34,227 bases of DNA from positions 1 to 34,227 of the forward strand of contig JABMNZ010000010.1 in NCBI GenBank assembly GCA_013204395.1, given 5' to 3'. The notes under the pieces are model-generated. The model did no database searches and was not told the origin of the DNA. It worked only from the letters and a program-made list of their open reading frames with translations. Below, piece by piece: positions 10,584 through 20,999 of this stretch. Source of the DNA: Parcubacteria group bacterium. GTDB taxonomy: Bacteria; Patescibacteriota; Patescibacteriia; UBA9934; GWF2-40-263. Both the position numbers and the translations under genes were made by a program. Position 1 is the stretch's first letter, and each line of letters starts with the position of its first letter.

Positions 10584-11624
10584 TTATTTAGTCTTATTAT
10601 TTTCTACAATCAATTGCCCGCAAGCCGCTGCGATATCATCTCCCATGGTGTGACGGATGGTCGTGACCACACCTTTCTCCTTTAGAATTTTTTGGAAGAG
10701 ATCTGTCGCAGATCCGGTTGAGCATTGGAACTCTACCCCCGTAAGGTTGTAGGGAATAAGGTTGACTCGCACGTTCCCGATTCTTTTTACAAAGTTTGCC
10801 AAGGTCCTGGCATGCTTCTCAGAATCATTCACATCCTTGAGCATCACATATTCAAAAGTGAGATGATGTCGACGGTTACCAAACTTCTTGAGATAGGCCT
10901 TTGCCCAGGCTTCTATCTTTGGAAGAAACTCGTCATAGGAAGTAGGGACGATCTCTTTACGCGTTGCCGGTATGGCACTGTGTAGTGAGACAGCCAAACG
11001 GATATGTGGCCAGTCATCATCTGTAAGAATTTGCTCTAGTCGAGGGAGGACGCCGACCGTTGAAACAGTAATGCGTGTGCGTCCAATGTCTGTGTGTTTC
11101 AAAATAGCATTAAGAGATTCTTTTACGGCACCGTAGTTTGCCAGTGGCTCACCCATACCCATGAAGACGATGTTACTAATTCGTCCTTCTAATTCTGGAC
11201 GCTCATCCAAGTATCTTTGCCAGAAGCGATATTGATCAATGATCTCGTCGGCAGTAAGGCTTCGGCTTAGGCCCATCTTTCCAGTTGCACAGAAACCGCA
11301 GCGCATGGCACAACCGATTTGTGATGATACACAGATGGTCCATGCTTCACGTTTGTTTTTCATCAGGACAGATTCGATCTCCTTATCGCCCTCAACTTTT
11401 AAGATGACTTTGTGTGTGTCGCCATTACCGCTTTTCAAAATATTTTCTGGTTCAACCGTTGAGAAGGGGATACTGGAGATTTTCTCTCTAATTTCTTTTG
11501 AAAGAGAGGTGAGATCCTCCCAAGATTCAGCGGTCGAAAAAAGACCCTGTTCAATTTGTTTCCAACGGAAAGCTGGCTGGTCAGGAAAGAGTGTTTCAAA
11601 TTGTTCGCGTCGTGACTTAATCAT
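10584..11624 (-). CDS. rlmN: 23S rRNA/tRNA (adenine-C2)-methyltransferase, radical SAM
   Basis: CAMRCGFCATG CxxxCxxC motif, ...GMGEPLAN..., full-length similarity to RlmN; ATG at 11624 (listed ORF starts at TTG 11633). Confidence 0.9.
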   Translation of the reverse strand: MIKSRREQFETLFPDQPAFRWKQIEQGLFSTAESWEDLTSLSKEIREKISSIPFSTVEPENILKSGNGDTHKVILKVEGDKEIESVLMKNKREAWTICVSSQIGCAMRCGFCATGKMGLSRSLTADEIIDQYRFWQRYLDERPELEGRISNIVFMGMGEPLANYGAVKESLNAILKHTDIGRTRITVSTVGVLPRLEQILTDDDWPHIRLAVSLHSAIPATRKEIVPTSYDEFLPKIEAWAKAYLKKFGNRRHHLTFEYVMLKDVNDSEKHARTLANFVKRIGNVRVNLIPYNLTGVEFQCSTGSATDLFQKILKEKGVVTTIRHTMGDDIAAACGQLIVENNKTK

Positions 11625-11667
11625 ACAAACCAATAGGCGAGAGCAAATGCTCTCGCCCAGGTAAATG

Positions 11668-12171
11668 TTATTTTGCAGCTTCTTCCCCGGCGGAGCCGGG
11701 TCCGGCTTCGCCGGAAGCCTCTGCTTCTTCTGCAGGTGCTTCTACCTCTTCTGCAGGTGCTTCCTCTACAACAGGCTTTTCGAGTTCAGCTTTTGCCGCC
11801 TCAGCAGCAGCAGCCTTCTCTTCCTCTGCCTTAGCCTTCTTTTCTTCTTCCTTCTCCTTTGCTTCTACCACCTTCTGTTCCAACTTACCTTTTCGTTTTT
11901 TGGTTAAGTGGGTGGCTGTACGCTTTTCTCCCTCAATAACCTTTTGGTCAACAAGGAGGTTCCACACACTGTCAGATGGCTGCGCACCTTGCTTGATCCA
12001 GTACTTTACGCGATCAGCATTGATGACAACTTCTTTTGGTGTTGAACGTGGGTTGTAGTGGCCAAGAATTTCGTTTGAGTTGGCCCATGGGTCACGATGC
12101 TTAGGCATAACCACAATGCGGAATACCGGTCGCTTCTTTGATCCCACACGTGAGAATCGAATTGAGAGCAT
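11668..12171 (-). CDS. rpsP: 30S ribosomal protein S16 with long A/E/K-rich C-terminal extension
   Basis: MLSIRFSRVGSKKRPVFRIVV...NRVKYWIKQGAQPS; C-terminal ~80 aa low-complexity AEK-rich. Confidence 0.9.
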   Translation of the reverse strand: MLSIRFSRVGSKKRPVFRIVVMPKHRDPWANSNEILGHYNPRSTPKEVVINADRVKYWIKQGAQPSDSVWNLLVDQKVIEGEKRTATHLTKKRKGKLEQKVVEAKEKEEEKKAKAEEEKAAAAEAAKAELEKPVVEEAPAEEVEAPAEEAEASGEAGPGSAGEEAAK

Positions 12172-12239: not shown

Positions 12240-12348
12240 CCAAGTCAATGAGTAGTGTCCAACAATTGCGTTATTTATTATGTTTAGATCAGCTGACACG
12301 TACAAGAAAAGTGACTAAAATTAGTGCAGAATCCGTCAGTTAGTCTTG

Positions 12349-12528
12349 ACAAAAGTGGCAAAAAGTGGTAGTATGACCACGCAATATGAGAGTAGGTAAG
12401 AGGACCTAACTCGATCAATACAATCAAATATTCTCTGGGGAGAGAGTACAAATAAAGCCTAGATTTTAGATCTAGAGCCGATTGTTGTGTATTTCTTTCC
12501 AGAAGTAACCACCAATCGGCTTTTTTGT
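12349..12528 (+). ncRNA. candidate small RNA unit: promoter TTGACA-17-TAGTAT then ~140-nt hairpin-rich transcript ending in intrinsic terminator
   Basis: TTGACA at 12349; terminator gccgattg...caatcggc + tttttt at ~12480-12528; no ORF; internal hairpins tctctggggagaga, ctagat..atctag. Confidence 0.35.
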
Positions 12529-12598: not shown

Positions 12599-12832
12599 AT
12601 GTCCCGTTTTGCCATCATCCTGTCTCTCATCGTCGCAACGATCACCGCCACCACCGTCAACTCGTCCCTCGACCAGCTCCACGAGCAGTTCCAGGCCACG
12701 GAGCTGACCTTTCACCCCGTCAGCGTGACCATTCAGGTCGAGTCATCGGACGAGACCACGGTCACCTACGACGACGCTGACAACGGCGTCACCGAGATCG
12801 ACTTCCACCAGCCCTTGTTCATCGAGGGCTGA
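12599..12832 (+). CDS. small secreted/anchored acidic protein (77 aa), first gene of high-GC island 2
   Basis: GGAGG RBS; N-terminal hydrophobic MSRFAIILSLIVATITATTV; GC3 ~85%. Confidence 0.55.
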   Translation: MSRFAIILSLIVATITATTVNSSLDQLHEQFQATELTFHPVSVTIQVESSDETTVTYDDADNGVTEIDFHQPLFIEG

Positions 12833-12875
12833 TCAAACCGGACCGCAAGGTCCACACGGAGCCCCCGGCTAACGC

Positions 12876-12932
12876 AAGCCGAGCCTGCCCGCCATCGCCC
12901 TGATGTCAGCTTTGCTGACTGATGGGCGACGG
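12876..12932 (+). repeat. long imperfect inverted repeat (structured element after 12599 gene)
   Basis: gcccgccatcgccctgatgtcagc-ttt-gctgactgatgggcgacggtgggc. Confidence 0.5.
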
Positions 12933-13355
12933 TGGGCTCTCCAACTGAGTTTCTGAGTTTACTCGGAAACTCCGCGGGGAGTCACATGACTCTGGTCATT
13001 ACAACTGAATACTTCCAAGGCTCACAACGATGTTGTGCATCTTGGAAGGCTGGTGAGTGTGATTCCTATCATCGCTCGCCAGCCCGTTCTTTCCATGAAT
13101 CCGGAAGAAGATACTTTGTCCTTCGTGGTGGCCCCAGAGGGGAGCCTGCCAAGGGGGAGAGAGACAACCGTCCAGTTCGACCGCTATGCGGAAGTCTGGC
13201 GGTGAAGATCAAATGGTTTGACTAGGCTCCGGCTTGCTCACTCCATACTCAGATCTTCTCGCATGACACTCAGCTTGCTGAGTCACTCACGCATTTCTTC
13301 TCCGGATTCTTGGAAAGAATACAAGACCGACGAAACCTTCCCACAAGACAGGAAA

Positions 13356-13625
13356 ATGATTTTGAACAAGTTAACTCGAATGATCGGTTCCAAGGCAGGT
13401 TTCTGCCTCACGGGGATGACGTTTCTTACATTCATGATGGCGACCCATCCGTTCGATACGTGCTACACCCTGAGCTTCGATCACATCGAGCACGTCGGGA
13501 AGTACCTGATCCAGAACTACGTCACCAGCCGCCTGATCCTTCTCATTGGCCTGGGGGTTACGTTCGTGCTCGGTGCACGCATTTACTTCTCTGTTGAGAA
13601 GCTTAGTGACTGGTGGAAAAACTGA
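13356..13625 (+). CDS. small membrane protein, 2 TM (89 aa)
   Basis: start MILNKL within ORF 13218..13625; TM segments FCLTGMTFLTFMMA and LILLIGLGVTFVLGARIYF; high GC3. Confidence 0.55.
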   Translation: MILNKLTRMIGSKAGFCLTGMTFLTFMMATHPFDTCYTLSFDHIEHVGKYLIQNYVTSRLILLIGLGVTFVLGARIYFSVEKLSDWWKN

Positions 13626-13668
13626 GCGTAGAGAAGAAGAGTCTACTGCTAATTGCTGAACCTGCTGA

Positions 13669-13863
13669 ATGCTGGAGCTGAACATGCTGCTGAACATGCT
13701 GAAGACCCTGGGTCACGTCCTCGTGATCCTTCTCATTCTCACCCCCTGCGCGGTCATGCCGTACTTCACCTTGGATGGAGACATTAACCTCCTGTCCATG
13801 GTGGTCTGCATGGCATCGCTTTCTCGTACTGTCTCTGGGCCTTCAGCGAGAAGCTGGGCCTGA
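13669..13863 (+). CDS. small hydrophobic peptide (64 aa); 3' end uncertain, GC3 suggests frame continues in +2 frame to 13886
   Basis: MLELNMLLNMLKTLGHVLVILLILTPCAV...; begins in tandem 12-nt repeats. Confidence 0.3.
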   Translation: MLELNMLLNMLKTLGHVLVILLILTPCAVMPYFTLDGDINLLSMVVCMASLSRTVSGPSARSWA

Positions 13864-13916
13864 AGTGGGAGCACATCAACTTCTAGCTCGCAGAGGAGAA
13901 CGTCCTCAACAGCGGG

Positions 13917-13985
13917 CTCCTCAACTGAGAGGTCGACCACGTAAAACCCTTTGGGTCACGTGACAAGTCGAAACTTCAGTTGGGG
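13917..13985 (+). repeat. attC-like imperfect palindrome (CTCAAC-TGAGA ... CTTCA-GTTGGGG)
   Basis: outer arms ctcaactgaga / cttcagttggg with nested hairpins cacgtaa..tcacgtg and accc-ttt-gggt. Confidence 0.5.
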
Positions 13986-14049
13986 AAAACGATTCGACAA
14001 AATTCGCAGGCGTCGTCCTGCAATCCCATAACATGGGAGAAAGGTTCAC

Positions 14050-14256
14050 ATGAACCAGTTCTACACCGTCGGTACTGATTTCTGGTACCTCATGTTGGCC
14101 GCGTACCTGGGATGGTTCCTCATCGTGCGCGAGGCTCGTCTCGTGCGTGAAGGTGGTCTGCGGCGGGAGGCTCTCGTCCTCTTCTGCATGCTCGCGGCCA
14201 CCACAGCCGTCACCTGTTTCATGGGTGACGTGGTCTGCTGGGTGTTCAACACCTAG
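14050..14256 (+). CDS. small membrane protein, 2 TM (68 aa)
   Basis: GGGAGAAAGG RBS; MNQFYTVGTDFWYLMLAAYLGWFLIV... Confidence 0.5.
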   Translation: MNQFYTVGTDFWYLMLAAYLGWFLIVREARLVREGGLRREALVLFCMLAATTAVTCFMGDVVCWVFNT

Positions 14257-14272
14257 GGACCACATACAAACC

Positions 14273-14410
14273 CCCACCAGGAATCCGCCTGGTGGGTACG
14301 ATCGAGCTAAACTTGCCTACCGGCAGGCATGCTCGACACGCCTCAAGCAAACGCAAAGCTTGAGGACCGAACTGAGAGGTTGATTGCAATAATCGAAACT
14401 TCAGTTGGGG
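14273..14410 (+). repeat. repeat family C copy 1: two hairpins (ccaccagg..cctggtgg; cctcaagc..gcttgagg) + attC-like palindrome ending GTTGGGG
   Basis: near-identical to 17785-17880 apart from a 42-nt insert. Confidence 0.7.
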
Positions 14411-15407
14411 ATCTAGATATTTTTCCTCTCGTAGAATCTCTTTCAACTAGAAAGCGTCTCCCTGCCGGCGCGAAACCCTATTAGGCAGGGGGGTCTAGCC
14501 ACCTAGACTTTTATCATCGATTCCAAGCTCGTGGTGGTGCGAGTGTACAGGAGGGCCAATGCCCAAGAGATAGAGGGAAGCATCTGGAGGTCTTTGACCA
14601 AGTTATCGACCAGGTGTGGATCATACAGGTAACCCGGCGTACTATGCGTGGATTTTTTAAGCGGAGAGTGGGGAACGGAAAGGAGCTAGAAACTCTGAGT
14701 ACAAGTACGAAGCAATCCCGTTTAATTATCCCTCCGGAATCTCCGGAACGTCGGTGAGCAGCAATGCTCTAAAGGGTCGCGCTAAAGCATGGGAGCCATT
14801 TGATTGATAGGGCTCTAAGGTCTGGCAAACCAATTCGATCAAAAAGGTCTTCTGACTTAGACCTCCTGACTCGTCAGGTTAAATGAAGTCTCCTCTTGCA
14901 CGTGGAGGTCAATGTGCACTGTGGTCGGCTGAGCCAACTCGTCTGGATGGGTTGCGCCCATATCCCGTTGTCCGAATACGTAAACGGTCGACTTGCTGCA
15001 CAGCATCCGTCTAGGGTCCTGTGTGAGTGAGCAACAAGTATCGGTGACCCTTGCTAAACGTCATCATTGAAAAAGGAGAGGTCGCGTGACCTTCCCCCTG
15101 CTGTTCTACGAGTCTTGATGTCGCGTCTCCCAGTGGCTCGCGCCAAAAAGCACTGGAGGGTGAGTCGCTGCATCCAAACGTCAGCGTCTGAGGCCCCGGA
15201 AAGCTCGTCATGAGCGACCGGGGTCTCGAACGATCCCGGTCGCCATGCACGTTGCCGACCGGGTCCTCAACAGAGAAATTGATCCAGGTGATGGATGTCT
15301 CTGTTGAGGGCACGAGGCCCTACCTTGAGACTCTGCACATTTGGTTATGTGTGGATCGAAAGCGGTGTCATATTTCAGAATTCGAGAATATTTGAACCGG
15401 AGGAACG

Positions 15408-15746
15408 ATGTCTGAATTGACCGGAGCCTATTACGTCGCGTTGCTCGTCGACCGACGAGTGGTGAACGCGAAGGTAGCCATCATCGATGGTGATCGCACC
15501 AAGGTCGAAATCGGCGGGATGACGCTGTGCCTGGACTTCATCAGTGAGGGTCATGTTGGGGTCATCCGTGAGCCGTACGACATCAGCGACTACTTCGGAA
15601 CCGTTGTGGCCAACCAGGAGCCCACACGCTTCTCTCGTGGAGTCGTGGTCGGGTTCTACCCCGGCGAATCCGGACAGGAACTCGCTCAGTGGTGGTCCGA
15701 GAGCATCGGGTCCATGAACCTGATTCTGGATGCCGACGGCTTCTAG
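15408..15746 (+). CDS. hypothetical protein (112 aa)
   Basis: GGAGGAACG RBS; high GC3; no recognisable motif. Confidence 0.6.
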   Translation: MSELTGAYYVALLVDRRVVNAKVAIIDGDRTKVEIGGMTLCLDFISEGHVGVIREPYDISDYFGTVVANQEPTRFSRGVVVGFYPGESGQELAQWWSESIGSMNLILDADGF

Positions 15747-15915
15747 AGATCACAAAACGTGTCACCCGGGTCCGGAGCTGCCCCACTCCTTCTGGAGAAA
15801 ATCAGCGATCCCTACTGGTGCAGGTGAACCTTTAAGTCAAGATCTCTGTGACGTGGATACGCCACCGCACAGAGAGCCACATTTCGTGGCACGGTCTCGA
15901 GTTCTGACACGACTC

Positions 15916-15961
15916 GAGATTCCAACGTAGATCTCAAGTTTCCTTGAGACCTGCGTTGGGG
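15916..15961 (+). repeat. repeat family A copy 1 (attC-like: CCAAC-GTAGA-TCTCAAG-tttc-CTTGAGA-CCTGC-GTTGGGG)
   Basis: 45-nt imperfect palindrome; second copy at 16383-16427. Confidence 0.7.
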
Positions 15962-15966
15962 AAAAC

Positions 15967-15990
15967 AAAACAACCCCTTATGGGGTTGTG
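15967..15990 (-). terminator. terminator of the low-GC coiled-coil gene
   Basis: minus: caaccccataaggggttg + ttttgtttt. Confidence 0.6.
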
Positions 15991-16001
15991 GAGTCGGTCT
16001 G

Positions 16002-16337
16002 CTAAAAGTCGAGTTGAATATTGGCATGTTTTGCCAGCAGGAGCACATGCGATTCAAGCCTTTCGTATTTGGCTCGCAAGGCGGCCAGTTCTGTGTCGAG
16101 TTTTTGATGAAGGATTATAATCCCATCTACATGAGTGATAATATCGGATTTTACCTCCGTCAGCTTCTCATCAACGGTATGCTTGAAATCATGTAAGTCA
16201 GAGCGAACCTGAGTAACTTCATCACGAACCTGAGTAACTTCATCACGAACCTCACCTAGCTCATGGCTGGTTGCAGCAGTTTCCTTGATGAACTGAACGG
16301 TCTCAAGGATATCTTTAATCATTTCTTCTTGTCCCAT
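16002..16337 (-). CDS. coiled-coil protein (111 aa) with in-frame 21-nt tandem repeat (VRDEVTQ x2); low-GC module inside island 2
   Basis: GC ~42%; own promoter TTGAGC-17-TATGAT (16346-16374, minus) ending 8 nt before ATG (leaderless-like); own terminator. Confidence 0.6.
   Translation of the reverse strand: MGQEEMIKDILETVQFIKETAATSHELGEVRDEVTQVRDEVTQVRSDLHDFKHTVDEKLTEVKSDIITHVDGIIILHQKLDTELAALRAKYERLESHVLLLAKHANIQLDF
16204..16256. repeat. 21-nt tandem direct repeat x2.5 inside coding sequence
   Basis: cgaacctgagtaacttcatca repeated at 16204-16224 and 16225-16245, partial third copy. Confidence 0.8.
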
Positions 16338-16382
16338 ACTCAGAAATCATAGCACGGAGTCGTTCTCTGCTCAATTATCATT

Positions 16383-16427
16383 GAGATTCCAACGTTGAGC
16401 TCAAGTTTCCTTGAGACCTGCGTTGGG
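16383..16427 (+). repeat. repeat family A copy 2
   Basis: gagattccaacgttgagctcaagtttccttgagacctgcgttggga; 2 substitutions vs copy 1. Confidence 0.7.
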
Positions 16428-16499
16428 AAACCACACAGGAAACCCAAACCAAACTGAAACCGTGAGCTTAGGCTCACACCACCAGCCCTTAGGAGAAAC

Positions 16500-16661
16500 A
16501 TGCTGCTTTTCATTCGATGGATCCTTGGCTTGGAAGAGCCCGAGACCTACAACTGGGATGAATTGATGGCCGCGGCGAGAGCAAAGGGTCCGGTGAATCC
16601 GGTCACCCATTGCTACTGCGAGCCACACCCCGATTGGGGTGACTCCTGTCAGTGTGACTGA
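16500..16661 (+). CDS. Cys-rich small peptide P1 (53 aa)
   Basis: AGGAGA RBS; MLLFIRWILGLEEPETYNWDELMAAARAKGPVNPVTHCYCEPHPDWGDSCQCD; paralog of P2. Confidence 0.5.
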   Translation: MLLFIRWILGLEEPETYNWDELMAAARAKGPVNPVTHCYCEPHPDWGDSCQCD

Positions 16662-16677
16662 GCCACGCGCTCGCCAT

Positions 16678-16783
16678 GAGGACGCTCCTCATCGCGCGCC
16701 TGCCGCGTAACAGGTACCCTGAGGGTCTCGTTTTACGCGGCTCCTCAACGTAGAAGTTGATTCATTCGACACTTACGTTGAGG
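16678..16783 (+). repeat. repeat family B copy 1 (80-nt structured element + attC-like palindrome cctcaacgtagaag..cttacgttgagg)
   Basis: gaggacgctcctc, ccgcgtaa..ttacgcgg with inner accctgagggt; copy 2 at 16999-17107. Confidence 0.7.
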
Positions 16784-16807
16784 ATCCATAATTTATCAGG
16801 AGATTCC

Positions 16808-16972
16808 GTGACTAAGTTCATTGTTTGGCTATTGGCCTTAATCGATGGTCCAGCGCCGATGCCAGAAATGCTGCGTGATCGCCCGAAGGGCAGGAACCGC
16901 ATCTACCCAGAGACGGGGTGCACCTGCGCCCCTGAAATTGAGTGGCAGGATTCCTGTCACCATCATCACTGA
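16808..16972 (+). CDS. Cys-rich small peptide P2 (54 aa, GTG start)
   Basis: AGGAGATTCC-GTG; (M)TKFIVWLLALIDGPAPMPEMLRDRPKGRNRIYPETGCTCAPEIEWQDSCHHHH; shares FIxWxLxL N-term and C.C.P...W.DSC core with P1. Confidence 0.5.
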   Translation: MTKFIVWLLALIDGPAPMPEMLRDRPKGRNRIYPETGCTCAPEIEWQDSCHHHH

Positions 16973-16998
16973 GTCAGCCCAGCTCGTAAGCCCGCACC

Positions 16999-17107
16999 GA
17001 GGACGCTCCTCATCGCGGGCACGCCGCGTGACGAGTACCCTGAGGGTCTCGTTTTACGCGGCTCCTCAACTGAGAGGTTGATTGCTACAATCGAAATCTC
17101 AGTTGAG
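16999..17107 (+). repeat. repeat family B copy 2 + attC-like palindrome ctcaactgaga...tctcagttgag ending GTTGAGT
   Basis: perfect 11-bp arms around ggttgattgctacaatcgaaa. Confidence 0.7.
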
Positions 17108-17135
17108 TGACGCTTTGTCACTAAGGAAGGTGAGT

Positions 17136-17264
17136 GTGGAAAAGAGTTCGAAAGAGCAGGTGGACTGGTTTCAGGTGCTCGTGTGGATGGGGATTGTCCT
17201 GTTTGGTGTGAGTTTCTGGACGATTGTCTACTACGGGATCTGCAAGGTTGCAGACCTGCTTTGA
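17136..17264 (+). CDS. single-TM mini-protein (42 aa, GTG start)
   Basis: AAGGAAGG RBS; ...VDWFQVLVWMGIVLFGVSFWTIVYYGICK... Confidence 0.35.
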   Translation: MEKSSKEQVDWFQVLVWMGIVLFGVSFWTIVYYGICKVADLL

Positions 17265-17284
17265 TGAACAGAAGGAACGAGGTG

Positions 17285-17770
17285 ATGATGGACATTTATC
17301 GCGTACTAGGAAAACTCTCGTGGGGCATGAAGATGCTCTTCTCGGGAATCGTTCGTGTGATCGAGAAGCCGTCCGTCTGGCTTGTCGAAAACATCAAGGA
17401 GATGACCGGCTGCCGGACCTACCACGTGGAGAATTCCGCTGTGGCTCTGGTCCTGGTGATCGTTCTTCTGAGCACGGGAAACTGGAGTCACCCCTTCAAG
17501 TGGGTCGAGGCGCTTGCCGTGCTGATGACCTTCGGGCACGCCGGGATCGCCCAGCGACTCGAGGAGCAGCAGCGACAACAGTTGGACCTCCATGGGGAGG
17601 CGCAGGTACCGTGCTTCTACAAACTGGAGCCGATGTTCGTCGGCAAGGAGACCCTCTGGATGATCACGTTCGCCGTGGCAGGACTCTGGTCCGCACTCGC
17701 TGGCGTCTTTGTCTTCCTGATGTACTATCCCTGGCGGGAAGCCTGGCGACACCAGCATCCGCTCAGGTAG
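17285..17770 (+). CDS. hypothetical membrane protein (161 aa)
   Basis: start MMDIYRVL with AAGGAACGAGG RBS; TM segments AVALVLVIVLLSTG, MITFAVAGLWSALAGVFVFLMYY. Confidence 0.55.
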   Translation: MMDIYRVLGKLSWGMKMLFSGIVRVIEKPSVWLVENIKEMTGCRTYHVENSAVALVLVIVLLSTGNWSHPFKWVEALAVLMTFGHAGIAQRLEEQQRQQLDLHGEAQVPCFYKLEPMFVGKETLWMITFAVAGLWSALAGVFVFLMYYPWREAWRHQHPLR

Positions 17771-17784
17771 ATGCATCGTAAACT

Positions 17785-17880
17785 CCACCAGGAATAGGCC
17801 TGGTGGAAACGCCTCAAGCTAACGCAAAGCTTGAGGACCGAACTGAGAGGCCAAGAGAAATCTTGGAACCTCGGTTGGGA
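17785..17880 (+). repeat. repeat family C copy 2
   Basis: ccaccaggaataggcctggtgg...cctcaagctaacgcaaagcttgagg accgaactgagagg...cggttggga. Confidence 0.7.
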
Positions 17881-17904
17881 ACTAGATATTGGTGAGAATC
17901 AAAA

Positions 17905-17962: not shown

Positions 17963-18084
17963 TGGTGGCAGATGCGATGGCAGGCTGAAGCCAGGCTCTA
18001 CATTCCAAGTACGGTGGCAGGCTGAAGCCAGCCTCTACATGCGTTCGATGATACATGTGATGTAGCGGCGGGCTTCAGCCCGCC
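17963..18084. repeat. REP-like hairpin block, left end of Y1-transposase unit
   Basis: two ggcaggctgaagccagcctct hairpins + ttcgatgatacatgtgatgtagcggcgggcttcagcccgcc; same block repeated in direct orientation at 18603-18721. Confidence 0.75.
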
Positions 18085-18101
18085 ATGTCTCTGCGCTAAT
18101 T

Positions 18102-18566
18102 CTATAACTCATCAACGTCACAAACGAATGATCCCAGATATGGATAGTTCCTCCAATCATCAACGAGACCACCCCTTTGAGGGTTTAAGAGAATGTAGGC
18201 TGCGACATCCTTTATGGATTCTTCGTTTCTTAATATGTGGTCGTAATAGCCTTTTTGCCAGAGGGGTGTCCCTGTTGTTTTTTTGAAATGGAAGCCGGTT
18301 AATTGCTTGAATGTTGCAATTGTTTTAATCAAATTTTGATCCTCATTGGTGGGGGCCATCAAGAGGTGCAGATGATCTGGCATGAAACAATAGGCATAGA
18401 TCTCCCAACTTTGCTTACAGGCACTCTTTAGATGATTGAGACAAAACTCTACGTGAGATGGTGATAGAAAATGTCGTTGACGGTTGAATGTGCAGATGGT
18501 TACTGAGTAGGCTCGCTGTTGGTTGTAGACGTCATGGGGGAGCCGGTTTTGTTTTCTTGTGAACAT
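18102..18566 (-). CDS. HuH Y1 transposase, REP-associated tyrosine transposase (RAYT)/IS200-like
   Basis: MPDHLHLLM (HuH) and LWQKGYYDHILRNEES...YILLNPQRGGLV (RAYT WQ..Y.DH signature); listed ORF extends to 18725 by reading through the repeat block. Confidence 0.75.
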   Translation of the reverse strand: MFTRKQNRLPHDVYNQQRAYSVTICTFNRQRHFLSPSHVEFCLNHLKSACKQSWEIYAYCFMPDHLHLLMAPTNEDQNLIKTIATFKQLTGFHFKKTTGTPLWQKGYYDHILRNEESIKDVAAYILLNPQRGGLVDDWRNYPYLGSFVCDVDEL

Positions 18567-18602
18567 AGGTGGTGGGTGTGACAGCGGGACGTTACGCATA
18601 TG

Positions 18603-18721
18603 ATGGCAGGCTGAAGCCAGCCTCTGCATTCCAAGTATGGTGGCAGATGCGATGGCAGGCTGAAGCCAGCCTCTACAGCGTTCGATGATACATGTGATGT
18701 AGCGGCGGGCTTCAGCCCGCC
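18603..18721. repeat. REP-like hairpin block, right end
   Basis: see left block. Confidence 0.75.
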
Positions 18722-18734
18722 ACATGTGTGTACA

Positions 18735-20999
18735 TCATCGTCTCGCTGTACCACCTTGAGCCACTTCTTCTAGATGAACTGAAAGCAGGTTTGAGATTCC
18801 CTCGTCACCCATAGTCACACCGTAGAGTACGTCAGCTTGTTCCATGGTGGCGCGGTTGTGTGTGATGATCACGAACTGTGAGTTTTTGGAAAGCTCTGAG
18901 AGAATGCCGGCGAACCGGACGGTGTTTGATTCGTCCAAGGCGGCGTCCACCTCGTCGAGAACGACGAAAGGGGAAGGGTTCACGGCCATGATGGCACTGA
19001 TCAGAGCGATCGATGTTAGTGCTCGCTCTCCACCTGATAGTAAGTTCAGGGCTTTGAGTTTCTTGCCCGGAGGAGTTGCTTGTATGTCTACGCCGATCAC
19101 TGGGTCTGTGTGTTTTTTAACTTTGGTTTCTATGGCATCTTCTTTGTCCCTTTGCCCCTCTCCCGTATCGGCAAAAGCTCGGTCAGCAGAGACTCCTTCA
19201 CTCTCATCTTCTTCAGGAATATCTTCTTTGGTGAGTTTAACCAGACGACAACTTCCACCACCAAAGAGCATCTTGAAGTACTTTTCAAACTCGGTGTTTA
19301 TTTTACCAAAGACTTTTTTGGATTGTTTTTCAATTTGCTCATCCAGTTCAACTATGACTTTCTCTGTAGACCTGAGAGCTTTGTGAAGATCCTTTACCTG
19401 GTCATCTAGGAATTGGAAACGCTCGTTGGTTTGCTCGTACTCCTGAACAATCTCAGGATCGATGCCACCAATGAGTTCTAGTTTATACCTAAGGCGTTGA
19501 ATCTCAGGATAGGTATCAGTGCCAGGTGAGTTTTCTGGTCTGTTAGATCTAACCTCGATAGCTCGATCTTTCATGAACTCGTCCATCTCTCGGATCAGGG
19601 CTCCTTGTCGCTCTTCAAAGCGGGCTAAGTCGATCTCAAGTGTCCCACGTCGGTTTTCATACAAGTGAATCTCTCGCTGTTTCTCGCGGAGAAGCTTTTG
19701 CATCTCAATGAGCTCAGTACGCTCAGTTTTTTCTTTTGTGGCGTATGAGTCAATCTGTCCCTCTAGCTTCTCAAGTTCCTTAGCAAGCTTCTGTTCATCG
19801 ATACCAAGACTTTTTAGTTTGGCAACGAGCGTTGGATCTGACTTGATGTCTTCTGGGTTTGGACGCTGAAGCTTTTTATTGAGATCCGTCGAATGTTTTA
19901 ATAGAGCCTCAACTTCTGAGTGGAGCTCGGTGACATCCTTAATCTTCTTTAGGCCCGTTAGACCTTTTACAATAGCGCCAACTTGCTCGACGATTCTAAT
20001 AAGAGGTAGTGGAGCCCAGTTGCTCTGCGCCCTCACACGTGTGAGTTCTATTTCTTTTTCTGTTTGGAAATGTTCGTCTCGGAGAGATCGTCGTTTCTTT
20101 TGCAATTCTCGATAGGTCGTCTGTAGCGCAACCAGTCCTGTGTCTGGTGTCACATCAACTCTTTCAACTGCATCAACTTTCTTTTCCAAACTATCTAATT
20201 CTCTGCGCTCGGCAATGATCGTCTTGTCTGCCTCGTCAAAATCTTTCTTTACAGTCTGCAGGCTGTCGACCAAGTTCCACCATTGATCTCCATAATACTG
20301 TCCTTCAAGTATGTGGAGGCTCTCTTCAATGGCACCACGTTTTTCAAGACGGCTCGCTTGGCGCTTGAGGGATCTTAGGCGTGGCTCGATTTCTCTGAGC
20401 AACATTTCTACGTCAGCAAGATTTTCATGTGTACGCTTGAGTTTCAATATGGAGTTATGGCGTTTGATCTGGAACGGCTTTACCCCCGTGGCGTCATCAA
20501 AGAAAGCTTTGCGCTCCTCTGGCGTGGAAACCAAAATATGATCAATCATGCCCTGACCCACTACCGAATAAGATCTCTGGCCAACGTTCGCTTGAGCCAA
20601 TAATAACTGAATGTCGTTAAGACGAACCTTTGAATCATTTAATAGATACTCAGAGCTGCCATCACGAAAGAGACGACGGGTGATCGTTACTTCGCTGTAA
20701 TCGATGGGCATGGCCCTATCCTCATTGTTAAAAGAGATGCTGACTTCTGCAAATCCAGCTCTACTCTTCCCTTCAGATCCAGAAAAAATAACATCCTCCG
20801 ACTTTTTACCACGGAGGAGCTTTAAGCTCTGCTCGCCAAGCACCCATCGGATAGCATCAGCAAGATTTGATTTTCCAGAGCCATTTGGGCCCACAACAGC
20901 TGTAATTGGGGATCGATCTGCCTGTGGTGGCAAGAAACTAAGACTCGTTTTTTTCGCAAAGGTCTTGAATCCCTGTATTTCAAGCTTGGTCAGGTACAT
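18735..20999 (-). CDS. smc: SMC-family chromosome segregation ATPase, short (754 aa, hinge-less/abbreviated coiled coil)
   Basis: N-terminal Walker A GPNGSGKSN, C-terminal LSGGERALTSIA signature + Walker B VLDEVDAALD; long coiled coil. Confidence 0.8.
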   Translation of the reverse strand: MYLTKLEIQGFKTFAKKTSLSFLPPQADRSPITAVVGPNGSGKSNLADAIRWVLGEQSLKLLRGKKSEDVIFSGSEGKSRAGFAEVSISFNNEDRAMPIDYSEVTITRRLFRDGSSEYLLNDSKVRLNDIQLLLAQANVGQRSYSVVGQGMIDHILVSTPEERKAFFDDATGVKPFQIKRHNSILKLKRTHENLADVEMLLREIEPRLRSLKRQASRLEKRGAIEESLHILEGQYYGDQWWNLVDSLQTVKKDFDEADKTIIAERRELDSLEKKVDAVERVDVTPDTGLVALQTTYRELQKKRRSLRDEHFQTEKEIELTRVRAQSNWAPLPLIRIVEQVGAIVKGLTGLKKIKDVTELHSEVEALLKHSTDLNKKLQRPNPEDIKSDPTLVAKLKSLGIDEQKLAKELEKLEGQIDSYATKEKTERTELIEMQKLLREKQREIHLYENRRGTLEIDLARFEERQGALIREMDEFMKDRAIEVRSNRPENSPGTDTYPEIQRLRYKLELIGGIDPEIVQEYEQTNERFQFLDDQVKDLHKALRSTEKVIVELDEQIEKQSKKVFGKINTEFEKYFKMLFGGGSCRLVKLTKEDIPEEDESEGVSADRAFADTGEGQRDKEDAIETKVKKHTDPVIGVDIQATPPGKKLKALNLLSGGERALTSIALISAIMAVNPSPFVVLDEVDAALDESNTVRFAGILSELSKNSQFVIITHNRATMEQADVLYGVTMGDEGISNLLSVHLEEVAQGGTARR

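Follow-up and report, generated by a model that had tools for sequence, protein, structure and literature searches.

The Cys-rich peptides P1 and P2 of a Parcubacteria group bacterium are encoded by neighbouring but independent gene cassettes, two members of a chromosomal integron-type array. Both lie in a 34,227-nt stretch of DNA (GenBank assembly GCA_013204395.1, contig JABMNZ010000010.1, positions 1 to 34,227 of the forward strand) that is referred to here as the window. In each cassette the peptide gene is followed by two stem-loops, H1 and H2, and then by a short attC recombination site, and it is to the attC site, not to the peptide gene, that this 3' element belongs. An earlier note on the same DNA had described the region as a pair of duplicated cassettes for small Cys-rich peptides, each with a structured 3' element of its own and an attC-like palindrome. 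Our overall explanation, which we regard as probable, is that P1 and P2 are independent cassettes of a CALIN-type array (cluster of attC sites lacking an integron integrase), that their products belong to a rare peptide family and that the attC-linked hairpins are not gene-specific.

The palindromes proved to be bona fide attC-type sites, as judged by both a covariance model and covariation. Imperfect palindromes of one design recur between 12.9 and 17.9 kb of the window, and 21 sites from the window and two related contigs (L008, a 138-kb contig of assembly GCA_041294345.1, and L006, a 2-kb contig) can be aligned to the pattern nTCCTCAAC-nTAGAG-nTCGA-loop-TCGA-nACCTG-nGTTGGGGA. The AAC/GTT pairing is present in 19 of the 21 aligned sites and is replaced by a compensatory AAT/ATT in the other two, while 10 of the 16 predicted pairs change on both sides. 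The R'' and R' boxes correspond to RYYYAAC and GTTRRRY and enclose an inner L''/L' pairing, with the last position of R' often G rather than Y. A covariance model (R1) built from the aligned sites was run on the window, L008 and L006, where it gave nine, 12 and three matches, respectively, and none in the flanking housekeeping DNA. The nine matches in the window (12937-17882) start at positions 12937 (weak), 13917, 14364, 15263, 15918, 16385, 16741, 17062 and 17835. Three of these, all on the forward strand, delimit the cassettes of interest: the attC of the preceding, reverse-oriented cassette (16385-16430; 50.9 bits, E-value: 6.5e-11), whose R' box GTTGGGA (16422-16428) sets the start of the P1 cassette; the attC of P1 (16741-16785; 53.3 bits, E-value: 1.6e-11), supported also by covariation, with R'' CCTCAAC at 16743-16749 and R' GTTGAGG at 16777-16783; and the attC of P2 (17062-17110; 49.5 bits, E-value: 1.5e-10), with R'' CCTCAAC at 17064-17070 and R' GTTGAGT at 17102-17108. 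With cassette limits set at the G|TT of the R' boxes (a crossover position inferred from the canonical integron mechanism), these attC matches and the sequence give a P1 cassette of 355 nt (16423-16777, + strand) and a P2 cassette of 325 nt (16778-17102, + strand).

At about 45 nt, the core attC is very short. Its R and L boxes are separated by a 2x2 internal loop that is conserved (alignment columns 14-15/57-58), and an extra L' base is found in some sites (for example, the P2 attC) and not in others. The top strand is the stabler one in 22 of 24 sites, on average by 5.5 kcal/mol, compared to a background bias of 1.5 kcal/mol. G.U pairs are distributed 53 to 11 between the strands, with the top strand the stabler. 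As a top-strand excess of G.U pairs leaves A.C mismatches in the bottom strand, these mismatches may stand in for the canonical unpaired features of attC sites.

The array as a whole extends from 12600 to 17882, mostly on the + strand, and includes nine attC sites and small open reading frames (ORFs); it is delimited by the covariance model, by flanking genes identified with Pfam and by synteny with L008. It lies between rpsP (11668-12171, - strand) and the terminator of smc (18735-20999, - strand). A radical-SAM (S-adenosylmethionine) gene at 10584-11633, assigned by Pfam and by L008 synteny, belongs to the conserved flank outside the array. The gene order of L008 is the same as that of the window (radical SAM, rpsP, array, smc, DHH, ClpP), and its array contains about 20 small + strand genes in cassettes that are partly common to the window and partly not. 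In both contigs the covariance-model matches fall inside an array of short, mostly co-oriented ORFs whose content varies between genomes. No integrase (tyrosine-recombinase) domain was found in the large ORFs of the window, searched with Pfam, or in the gene list of L008, and no intI, attI or Pc was identified within the 34 kb. Because the 34-kb contig has no integrase, the array is classed under the usual definition as a CALIN and not as a complete integron.

The P1 gene (16500-16661, + strand) is a called gene in a public collection. It begins with ATG, has AGGAG 6 nt upstream and encodes 53 aa with a C-x-C-x9-C-x-C pattern. The P2 gene (16808-16972, + strand) begins with GTG, is likewise preceded by AGGAG and encodes 54 aa with a C-x-C-x9-C-H-H-H-H pattern. 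The GTG at 16808 is almost certainly the true start of P2, because AGGAG precedes it and because the alternative TTG at 16757 lies within the attC palindrome. A mechanically called 71-aa ORF from that TTG (16757-16972) was therefore rejected; its start is inside the preceding attC and the homologues begin at the equivalent of the GTG. The motifs quoted in the earlier note (F-I-x-W-[IL]-L-x-L, C-x-C-x-P-x3-W-x-D-S-C and the HHHH tail on P2) are correct, and the two ORFs, their paralogy and their coding nature were all borne out. In a BLASTP comparison, P1 and P2 share 15 of 48 residues (31%) with zero gaps (E-value: 5e-8 for a single comparison).

The family to which they belong is very rare. 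An exhaustive hidden Markov model (HMM) search of 1.84 billion cluster representatives returned P1, P2 and one further protein, P3 (P0003, 56 aa, E-value: 6.8e-9); two weaker matches were rejected as repetitive proteins of 550-580 aa. A word-indexed search of 5.8 billion clusters added P6 (P0006, 55 aa), and repeated word searches gave only these four members. In all, about 15 billion proteins were searched and the family comprises four known members of 53-56 aa, two of them beyond P1 and P2. In metagenome contigs, an alignment scan gave only one match, which was spurious and 12 residues long. Searches of viral contigs with the peptide profile and with patterns for the hairpins described below (type A plus R'', and H2) found no relative, the two DNA matches obtained being chance matches without an attC. 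A profile built from P2 and its two foreign relatives had P1 as its sole additional match among 1,636 six-frame pieces of the loci studied (18.4 bits, E-value: 1.3e-4). P3 (L006 842-1012) and P6 (L008 10001-10168, in the syntenic array) are each the sole gene of an attC-bounded cassette, so that all four members of the family are single-gene cassettes.

The P1/P2 family is genuinely coding and, judged from its substitution pattern, is under purifying selection at the protein level. Between P2 and P6, the proportion of synonymous differences (pS) is 0.71 and that of non-synonymous differences (pN) is 0.29, with a dN/dS of about 0.16. The 21-codon C-terminal core of this pair has 10 synonymous and 4 non-synonymous differences. 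The earlier note had named conservation of the peptide frame in homologous loci as a test of its claim, and the frame is kept. All four genes also have AGGAG or GGAGG 5-8 nt upstream. The encoded peptides share an N-terminal hydrophobic helix motif, F-[IF]-x-W-[IL]-L-x-[LI], a basic, proline-rich linker and a C-terminus of the form T-[GH]-C-x-C-x9-C-x-[C/H], in which the fourth position is Cys in P1 and His in P2, P3 and P6. Four Cys/His positions are conserved in every member, one of them with either residue, as would be expected of the ligands of a zinc site. We therefore predict that the members are zinc-binding proteins of small size, located in the cytoplasm, with these four positions as ligands; of the functions put forward in the earlier note, metal binding appears to be the best reading of C-x-C-x9-C-x-[C/H]. 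The family matches no entry in Pfam, NCBIfam or the PDB sequences, and the spacing of its Cys/His positions corresponds to no family there.

Each peptide gene is followed by a 3' repeat (16669-16762 and 16990-17083; 86% identity over 94 nt), and both the repeat and its folding, as described in the earlier note, are real. Its cores, a 19-mer and a 27-mer, have exactly two occurrences each in the window, and 100 shuffled sequences contained neither. Each copy folds into a row of three hairpins, namely H1, H2 and the terminal palindrome (z-scores relative to dinucleotide shuffles: -6.8 and -6.9), and H1 and H2 are located between the stop codon and the core attC. In the first copy, folding and alignment place H1 (GAGGA-CGC-TCCTC core) at 16667-16699 and H2 (GCCGCGTAA...TTACGCGGC, inner ACCC-TGA-GGGT) at 16702-16741, the 3' end of H2 being 5 nt before the R'' AAC. 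In the second copy, H1 is at 16990-17020 and H2 at 17023-17062, as determined from the repeat alignment and from folding (and, for H1, from alignment with the type A hairpins described below); all four stem-loops are on the + strand. A search of Rfam over 16300-17300 returned no relevant match, even at E ≤ 10. A search of genome contigs with an H1...H2 DNA pattern gave four matches, all chance matches inside coding sequences of unrelated taxa. H1 and H2 do not resemble intrinsic terminators: they are followed by GC-rich sequence and attC rather than by a T-run, and a terminator scan calls neither of them, although it does call T-run terminators in the same array (15989-15970 and 12476-12527).

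The idea that this element is an RNA associated with the peptides did not hold, for three reasons. First, the other two members of the family lack H1+H2: the P3 cassette has a single type A hairpin (CCCGATGAGGTGAACGACTTTATCGGG) directly before its attC, and the P6 cassette has a different long hairpin in the same position. Second, a homologue of H2 (L008 11380-11422; 78% identity, with an A-T to C-G exchange in the stem) abuts an attC in a cassette that carries an unrelated 94-aa gene and a small ORF. Third, hairpins are a general feature of attC sites in these arrays. Folding of the 60-nt segments that precede the 24 attC sites (from the window, L008 and L006) gave a stable hairpin beside 23 of them. 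The distance from the end of the hairpin to the R'' AAC is 0-13 nt at these 23 sites and 0-7 nt at 21, most distances being 4-6 nt. In a position-by-position scan, a hairpin with a free energy (dG) of -10 kcal/mol or lower ends within a 4-nt interval at the start of the attC in 20 of the 24 cases; among background intervals of this length in these arrays, the proportion is 22% (binomial P about 3e-10). These observations link the 3' element to the attC.

The pre-attC hairpins fall into a few sequence families that are common to unrelated genes, both within and between genomes. Type A hairpins have an invariant GAGG...ACG and a conserved loop, GAGG-GAAC-G; H1 of both P1 and P2 aligns with this family. 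Type B is CCTCAAGC...GCTTGAGG and type D is H2, such that the 3' ends of the P1 and P2 cassettes each consist of a type A-like hairpin, a type D hairpin and an attC. A second two-hairpin module, E+B, consists of CCACCAGG..CCTGGTGG followed by CCTCAAGC..GCTTGAGG and then by attC. It is found twice in the window (14269-14412 and 17780-17882) and twice in L008 (~4895-4993 and ~7340-7438), in cassettes with unrelated ORFs (68 aa versus 158 aa) both within and between genomes. As the hairpins lack T-runs and are common to unrelated genes, they are not each gene's own terminator.

The near-identity of the two 3' modules contrasts with the divergence of the genes that they follow. P1 and P2 have a pS of 0.82 (saturated synonymous sites), 29% identity at third codon positions and 44% nucleotide identity over the coding sequence, and P2 is more similar in protein sequence to P6 (61% identity) and P3 (50%) than to P1 (29-31%). 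These values suggest that P1 and P2 are old paralogues. The duplicated cassettes of the earlier note are thus integron-type cassettes with paralogous genes, but not the product of a recent tandem duplication. In contrast, the 3' modules are 86-91% identical and include a 36-nt stretch without differences. With the coding sites saturated, this points to homogenisation or constraint rather than recent duplication, and the near-identity would be explained by gene conversion or module exchange between neighbouring cassettes, or by strong constraint. Integrase exchange at G|TT never parts a gene from its downstream hairpins and attC, and so homologous exchange, gene conversion or constraint is needed. 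The P1 and P2 attC sites differ by compensatory changes in the spacer (GTAGAAG/CACTTAC versus TGAGAGG/AATCTCA), which indicates that any homogenised tract ends inside the attC.

Several points weigh against the explanation given above. The similarity that places P1 in the family is weak (18 bits to the P2/P3/P6 profile), and zinc binding is read from a sequence pattern. The AlphaFold2 model, made with a four-sequence alignment, is of low confidence (pLDDT 60, pTM 0.21) and predicts a helix over residues 2-12 only. The generality of the hairpins is based on three independent contigs, and the sole reverse-oriented cassette (15964-16430) is without a strong pre-attC hairpin. The top strand of the hairpins is stabler by 1.9 kcal/mol, compared to 1.5 kcal/mol in random windows of the arrays, a difference that does not separate folding in RNA from folding in DNA. 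The term "integron" is applied here on the basis of attC structure and array anatomy, and the short attC sites do not show the canonical extrahelical bases in a consistent manner.

As to what the hairpins do, we tentatively favour a role together with attC. The stem-loops would be a lineage-specific extension of the attC module and could function jointly with the short attC when single-stranded DNA folds, for instance by keeping the 45-nt site from pairing with cargo sequence. Ranked nearly as likely, if somewhat less so, is a role in RNA, in which H1 and H2 would be 3'-end stem-loops that protect the mRNA from 3' exonucleases, or that limit read-through and translation into the next cassette by insulation or attenuation, and would travel with attC merely through adjacency. 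Consistent with this, the hairpins are on the sense strand between stop codon and attC in 23 of 24 forward cassettes, and attC hairpins in mRNA are described as impeding translation of downstream cassettes (reviewed in PMC8876359). The reverse-oriented cassette also carries a promoter of its own, and its gene ends in a canonical terminator. The lack of a strong hairpin in this cassette argues against the hairpin being indispensable for recombination, and this single case favours a link to the 3' ends of sense-oriented genes. However, no T-run follows H1 or H2 and neither is called by a scan that finds canonical terminators in the same array, the near-constant spacing to R'' (mostly 4-6 nt before AAC) is unexpected for 3' ends owned by genes, the same hairpin families occur with unrelated genes and the top-strand stability bias equals the background. 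A link to the attC module is favoured by the close and regular spacing to R'' and by the recurrence of the same hairpin families with unrelated genes.

A further reading, which we consider unlikely, is that the minimal 45-nt attC and the abutting stem-loop together make up a composite recombination site in which the stem-loop is a functional part, with a new family of zinc-binding mini-proteins as cargo. The stem-loop would then serve folding, the choice of strand or orientation where the extrahelical bases are unclear, or the binding of a host or integrase-associated factor, for which the type A GAGG-GAAC-G loop would be suited. Whole modules of hairpin and attC would be exchanged between cassettes independently of cargo.

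Equally doubtful is the proposal that the hairpins are functionless relics of cassette genesis or decay, either former terminator stems joined to attC or remnants of fused cassettes; the H1+H2 tandem, for example, could derive from a deletion that fused a type A cassette to the hairpin and attC of a downstream cassette. A model of cassette formation through group IIC-attC introns was reportedly put forward by Leon and Roy in 2009. In this model, as summarised elsewhere (PMC7923331, PMC3001079), a gene is joined to an isolated attC via its terminator stem-loop region. The type A core (GAGG...CCTC) resembles the R' and R'' boxes (GTTGAGG/CCTCAAC), tandem hairpins are found in two module families, and the first attC of the array (12937-12981, 22 bits) is degenerate and fused. 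Decay is nevertheless difficult to reconcile with stems that are intact at 23 of 24 sites on three contigs while differing in sequence at the same position, or with the A-T to C-G exchange that distinguishes the H2 stems of the window and L008. The 86-91% identity of the P1 and P2 modules despite saturated synonymous sites likewise indicates constraint or active homogenisation.

The remaining alternatives are highly improbable. Under one of these, H1 and H2 would be a cis-regulatory or functional RNA dedicated to the peptide family (for example, antitoxin-like), and P1 and P2 would stem from a recent tandem duplication in which gene and element were copied together. The two copies seen in the window do bear the same element directly after the stop codon, but this proposal is largely refuted by the P3 and P6 cassettes without H1+H2, by the H2 homologue behind the unrelated 94-aa gene and small ORF in L008, by the saturated divergence of the coding sequences next to an 86-91% identical element and by the lack of any Rfam match. 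Under the other, P1 and P2 would be chance ORFs in non-coding cassettes, precursors of bacteriocins or of ribosomally synthesized and post-translationally modified peptides (RiPPs), or small membrane toxins, as their short length, Cys-rich composition, hydrophobic N-terminus and lack of a database family, and a radical-SAM gene 5 kb upstream, might suggest; chance ORFs do not fit genes with Shine-Dalgarno sites whose frame is kept in four cassettes on three contigs and whose pN is well below their pS. A membrane toxin would need a transmembrane helix of some 18 hydrophobic residues or more, and is unlikely because the hydrophobic run of the peptides is just 9-11 residues long and is followed by D/E-G-P. 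RiPP or bacteriocin precursors are unsupported because no gene for a modification enzyme, protease or transporter is linked to the peptide genes in their cassettes, because the neighbours differ in the window, L006 and L008, and because the radical-SAM gene lies outside the array in conserved housekeeping synteny.

Other parts of the array have features of their own. Upstream of the first cassette, a near-consensus promoter (TTGACA-17-TAGTAT with an extended -10 TG; 12346-12374) is directed towards the array and is followed about 100 nt later by a T-run hairpin (12476-12527). The region 12346-12527, which is syntenic in L008, could represent a promoter of the Pc type, a leader or a small RNA. 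The first attC (12937-12981) has R' GCGGGGA instead of GTTGGGG, and the strongest hairpin of the array (-36 kcal/mol) precedes it; since the first cassette is kept in place in L008, it is probably fixed. The reverse-oriented cassette (15964-16430), the only one in the array, encodes a 111-aa coiled-coil protein (16002-16337, - strand), the gene for which contains a 23-nt tandem duplication; its promoter is at 16374-16346 and its canonical T-run terminator at 15989-15970, as identified in the terminator/promoter scan. The cassette at 14413-15311 (~900 nt) has no + strand ORF of more than 50 aa and is a conserved non-coding cassette. It is 81% identical to its counterpart in L008 (8152-8933), with a core (14740-15010) of more than 90% identity, and contains frame-breaking indels. 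It has no Rfam match, and both strands give a minimum free energy z-score of about 0. Past the end of the array and before smc (17976-18725), a Y1 transposase of the IS200-like type (18102-18725, - strand; similar to REP-associated tyrosine transposases, RAYTs) is flanked by repeats resembling repetitive extragenic palindromes (REPs; 17976-18086 and 18602-18722), an insertion that is absent from this position in L008.

Elsewhere in the window, a 580-aa ORF (3459-5201, - strand) combines major-vault-protein shoulder and vault repeat domains with an SPFH/Band 7 region, an architecture that is uncommon for a bacterium. The 5' 865 nt of a partial 16S rRNA gene are found at 1-868 (- strand), with atypical universal-probe regions (CCTACGGGGGACTGCAGT; CAGCAGCTGCGG). 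A SAM-I riboswitch is present at 8160-8264 (- strand; 57 bits).

The peptides described here add a family of about 55 aa, supported by selection, to the largely unknown cargo of environmental integron cassettes, and P1 and P2 show how genes below the usual ORF cut-offs are missed. The hairpins bear on a different question. An attC site is normally defined by a single hairpin. A lineage in which almost all attC sites have an abutting stem-loop from one of a few families, exchanged among cassettes with unrelated genes, suggests either an unrecognised accessory part of the recombination site or a footprint of the process by which attC is attached to a gene, an unsettled matter in integron biology. 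If the hairpins are inert, P1 and P2 are an ordinary pair of ORFan cassettes. The accession numbers gave no match in the searchable literature. No description of stem-loops upstream of attC was found there, which is weak evidence of novelty.

Compared with known systems, the array resembles CALINs and sedentary chromosomal integrons in two respects. It consists of short, mostly co-oriented single-gene units that end in a palindrome with R'' AAC, R' GTT and L''/L' pairing, and its content, mostly ORFan genes, varies between related genomes at the same chromosomal site. It differs from them in that one or two stem-loops, not included in the R''-R' pairing, lie before nearly every one of its ~45-nt attC sites. 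The long attC repeats of the VCR type (Vibrio cholerae repeats) are about 120-126 nt in length. Like them, the 3' ends of these cassettes form a conserved module of ~100-130 nt that is found 3' of unrelated genes and is far better conserved than the cargo. However, the whole VCR repeat lies between R'' and R' and forms one long hairpin, whereas H1 and H2 are 5' of R'', fold alone and belong to interchangeable families. With respect to the model of group IIC-attC introns, cassette formation of this type could leave a junction at which a stem-loop stands beside attC. The window differs from this model in having no intron, and its hairpins lack T-runs and belong to families common to unrelated genes. 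The peptides resemble zinc-knuckle and zinc-ribbon-like mini-proteins in having two close Cys/His pairs, Cys/His interchange, a length of ~55 aa and an adjacent basic region; they differ in their C-x-C-x9-C-x-[C/H] spacing. Cassettes, attC sites and the CALIN context are therefore known kinds, and ORFan genes are the rule in cassettes; the unusual part is the composite 3' end, in which a minimal attC of ~45 nt is joined to one or two separate, family-structured stem-loops outside the R''-R' pairing.

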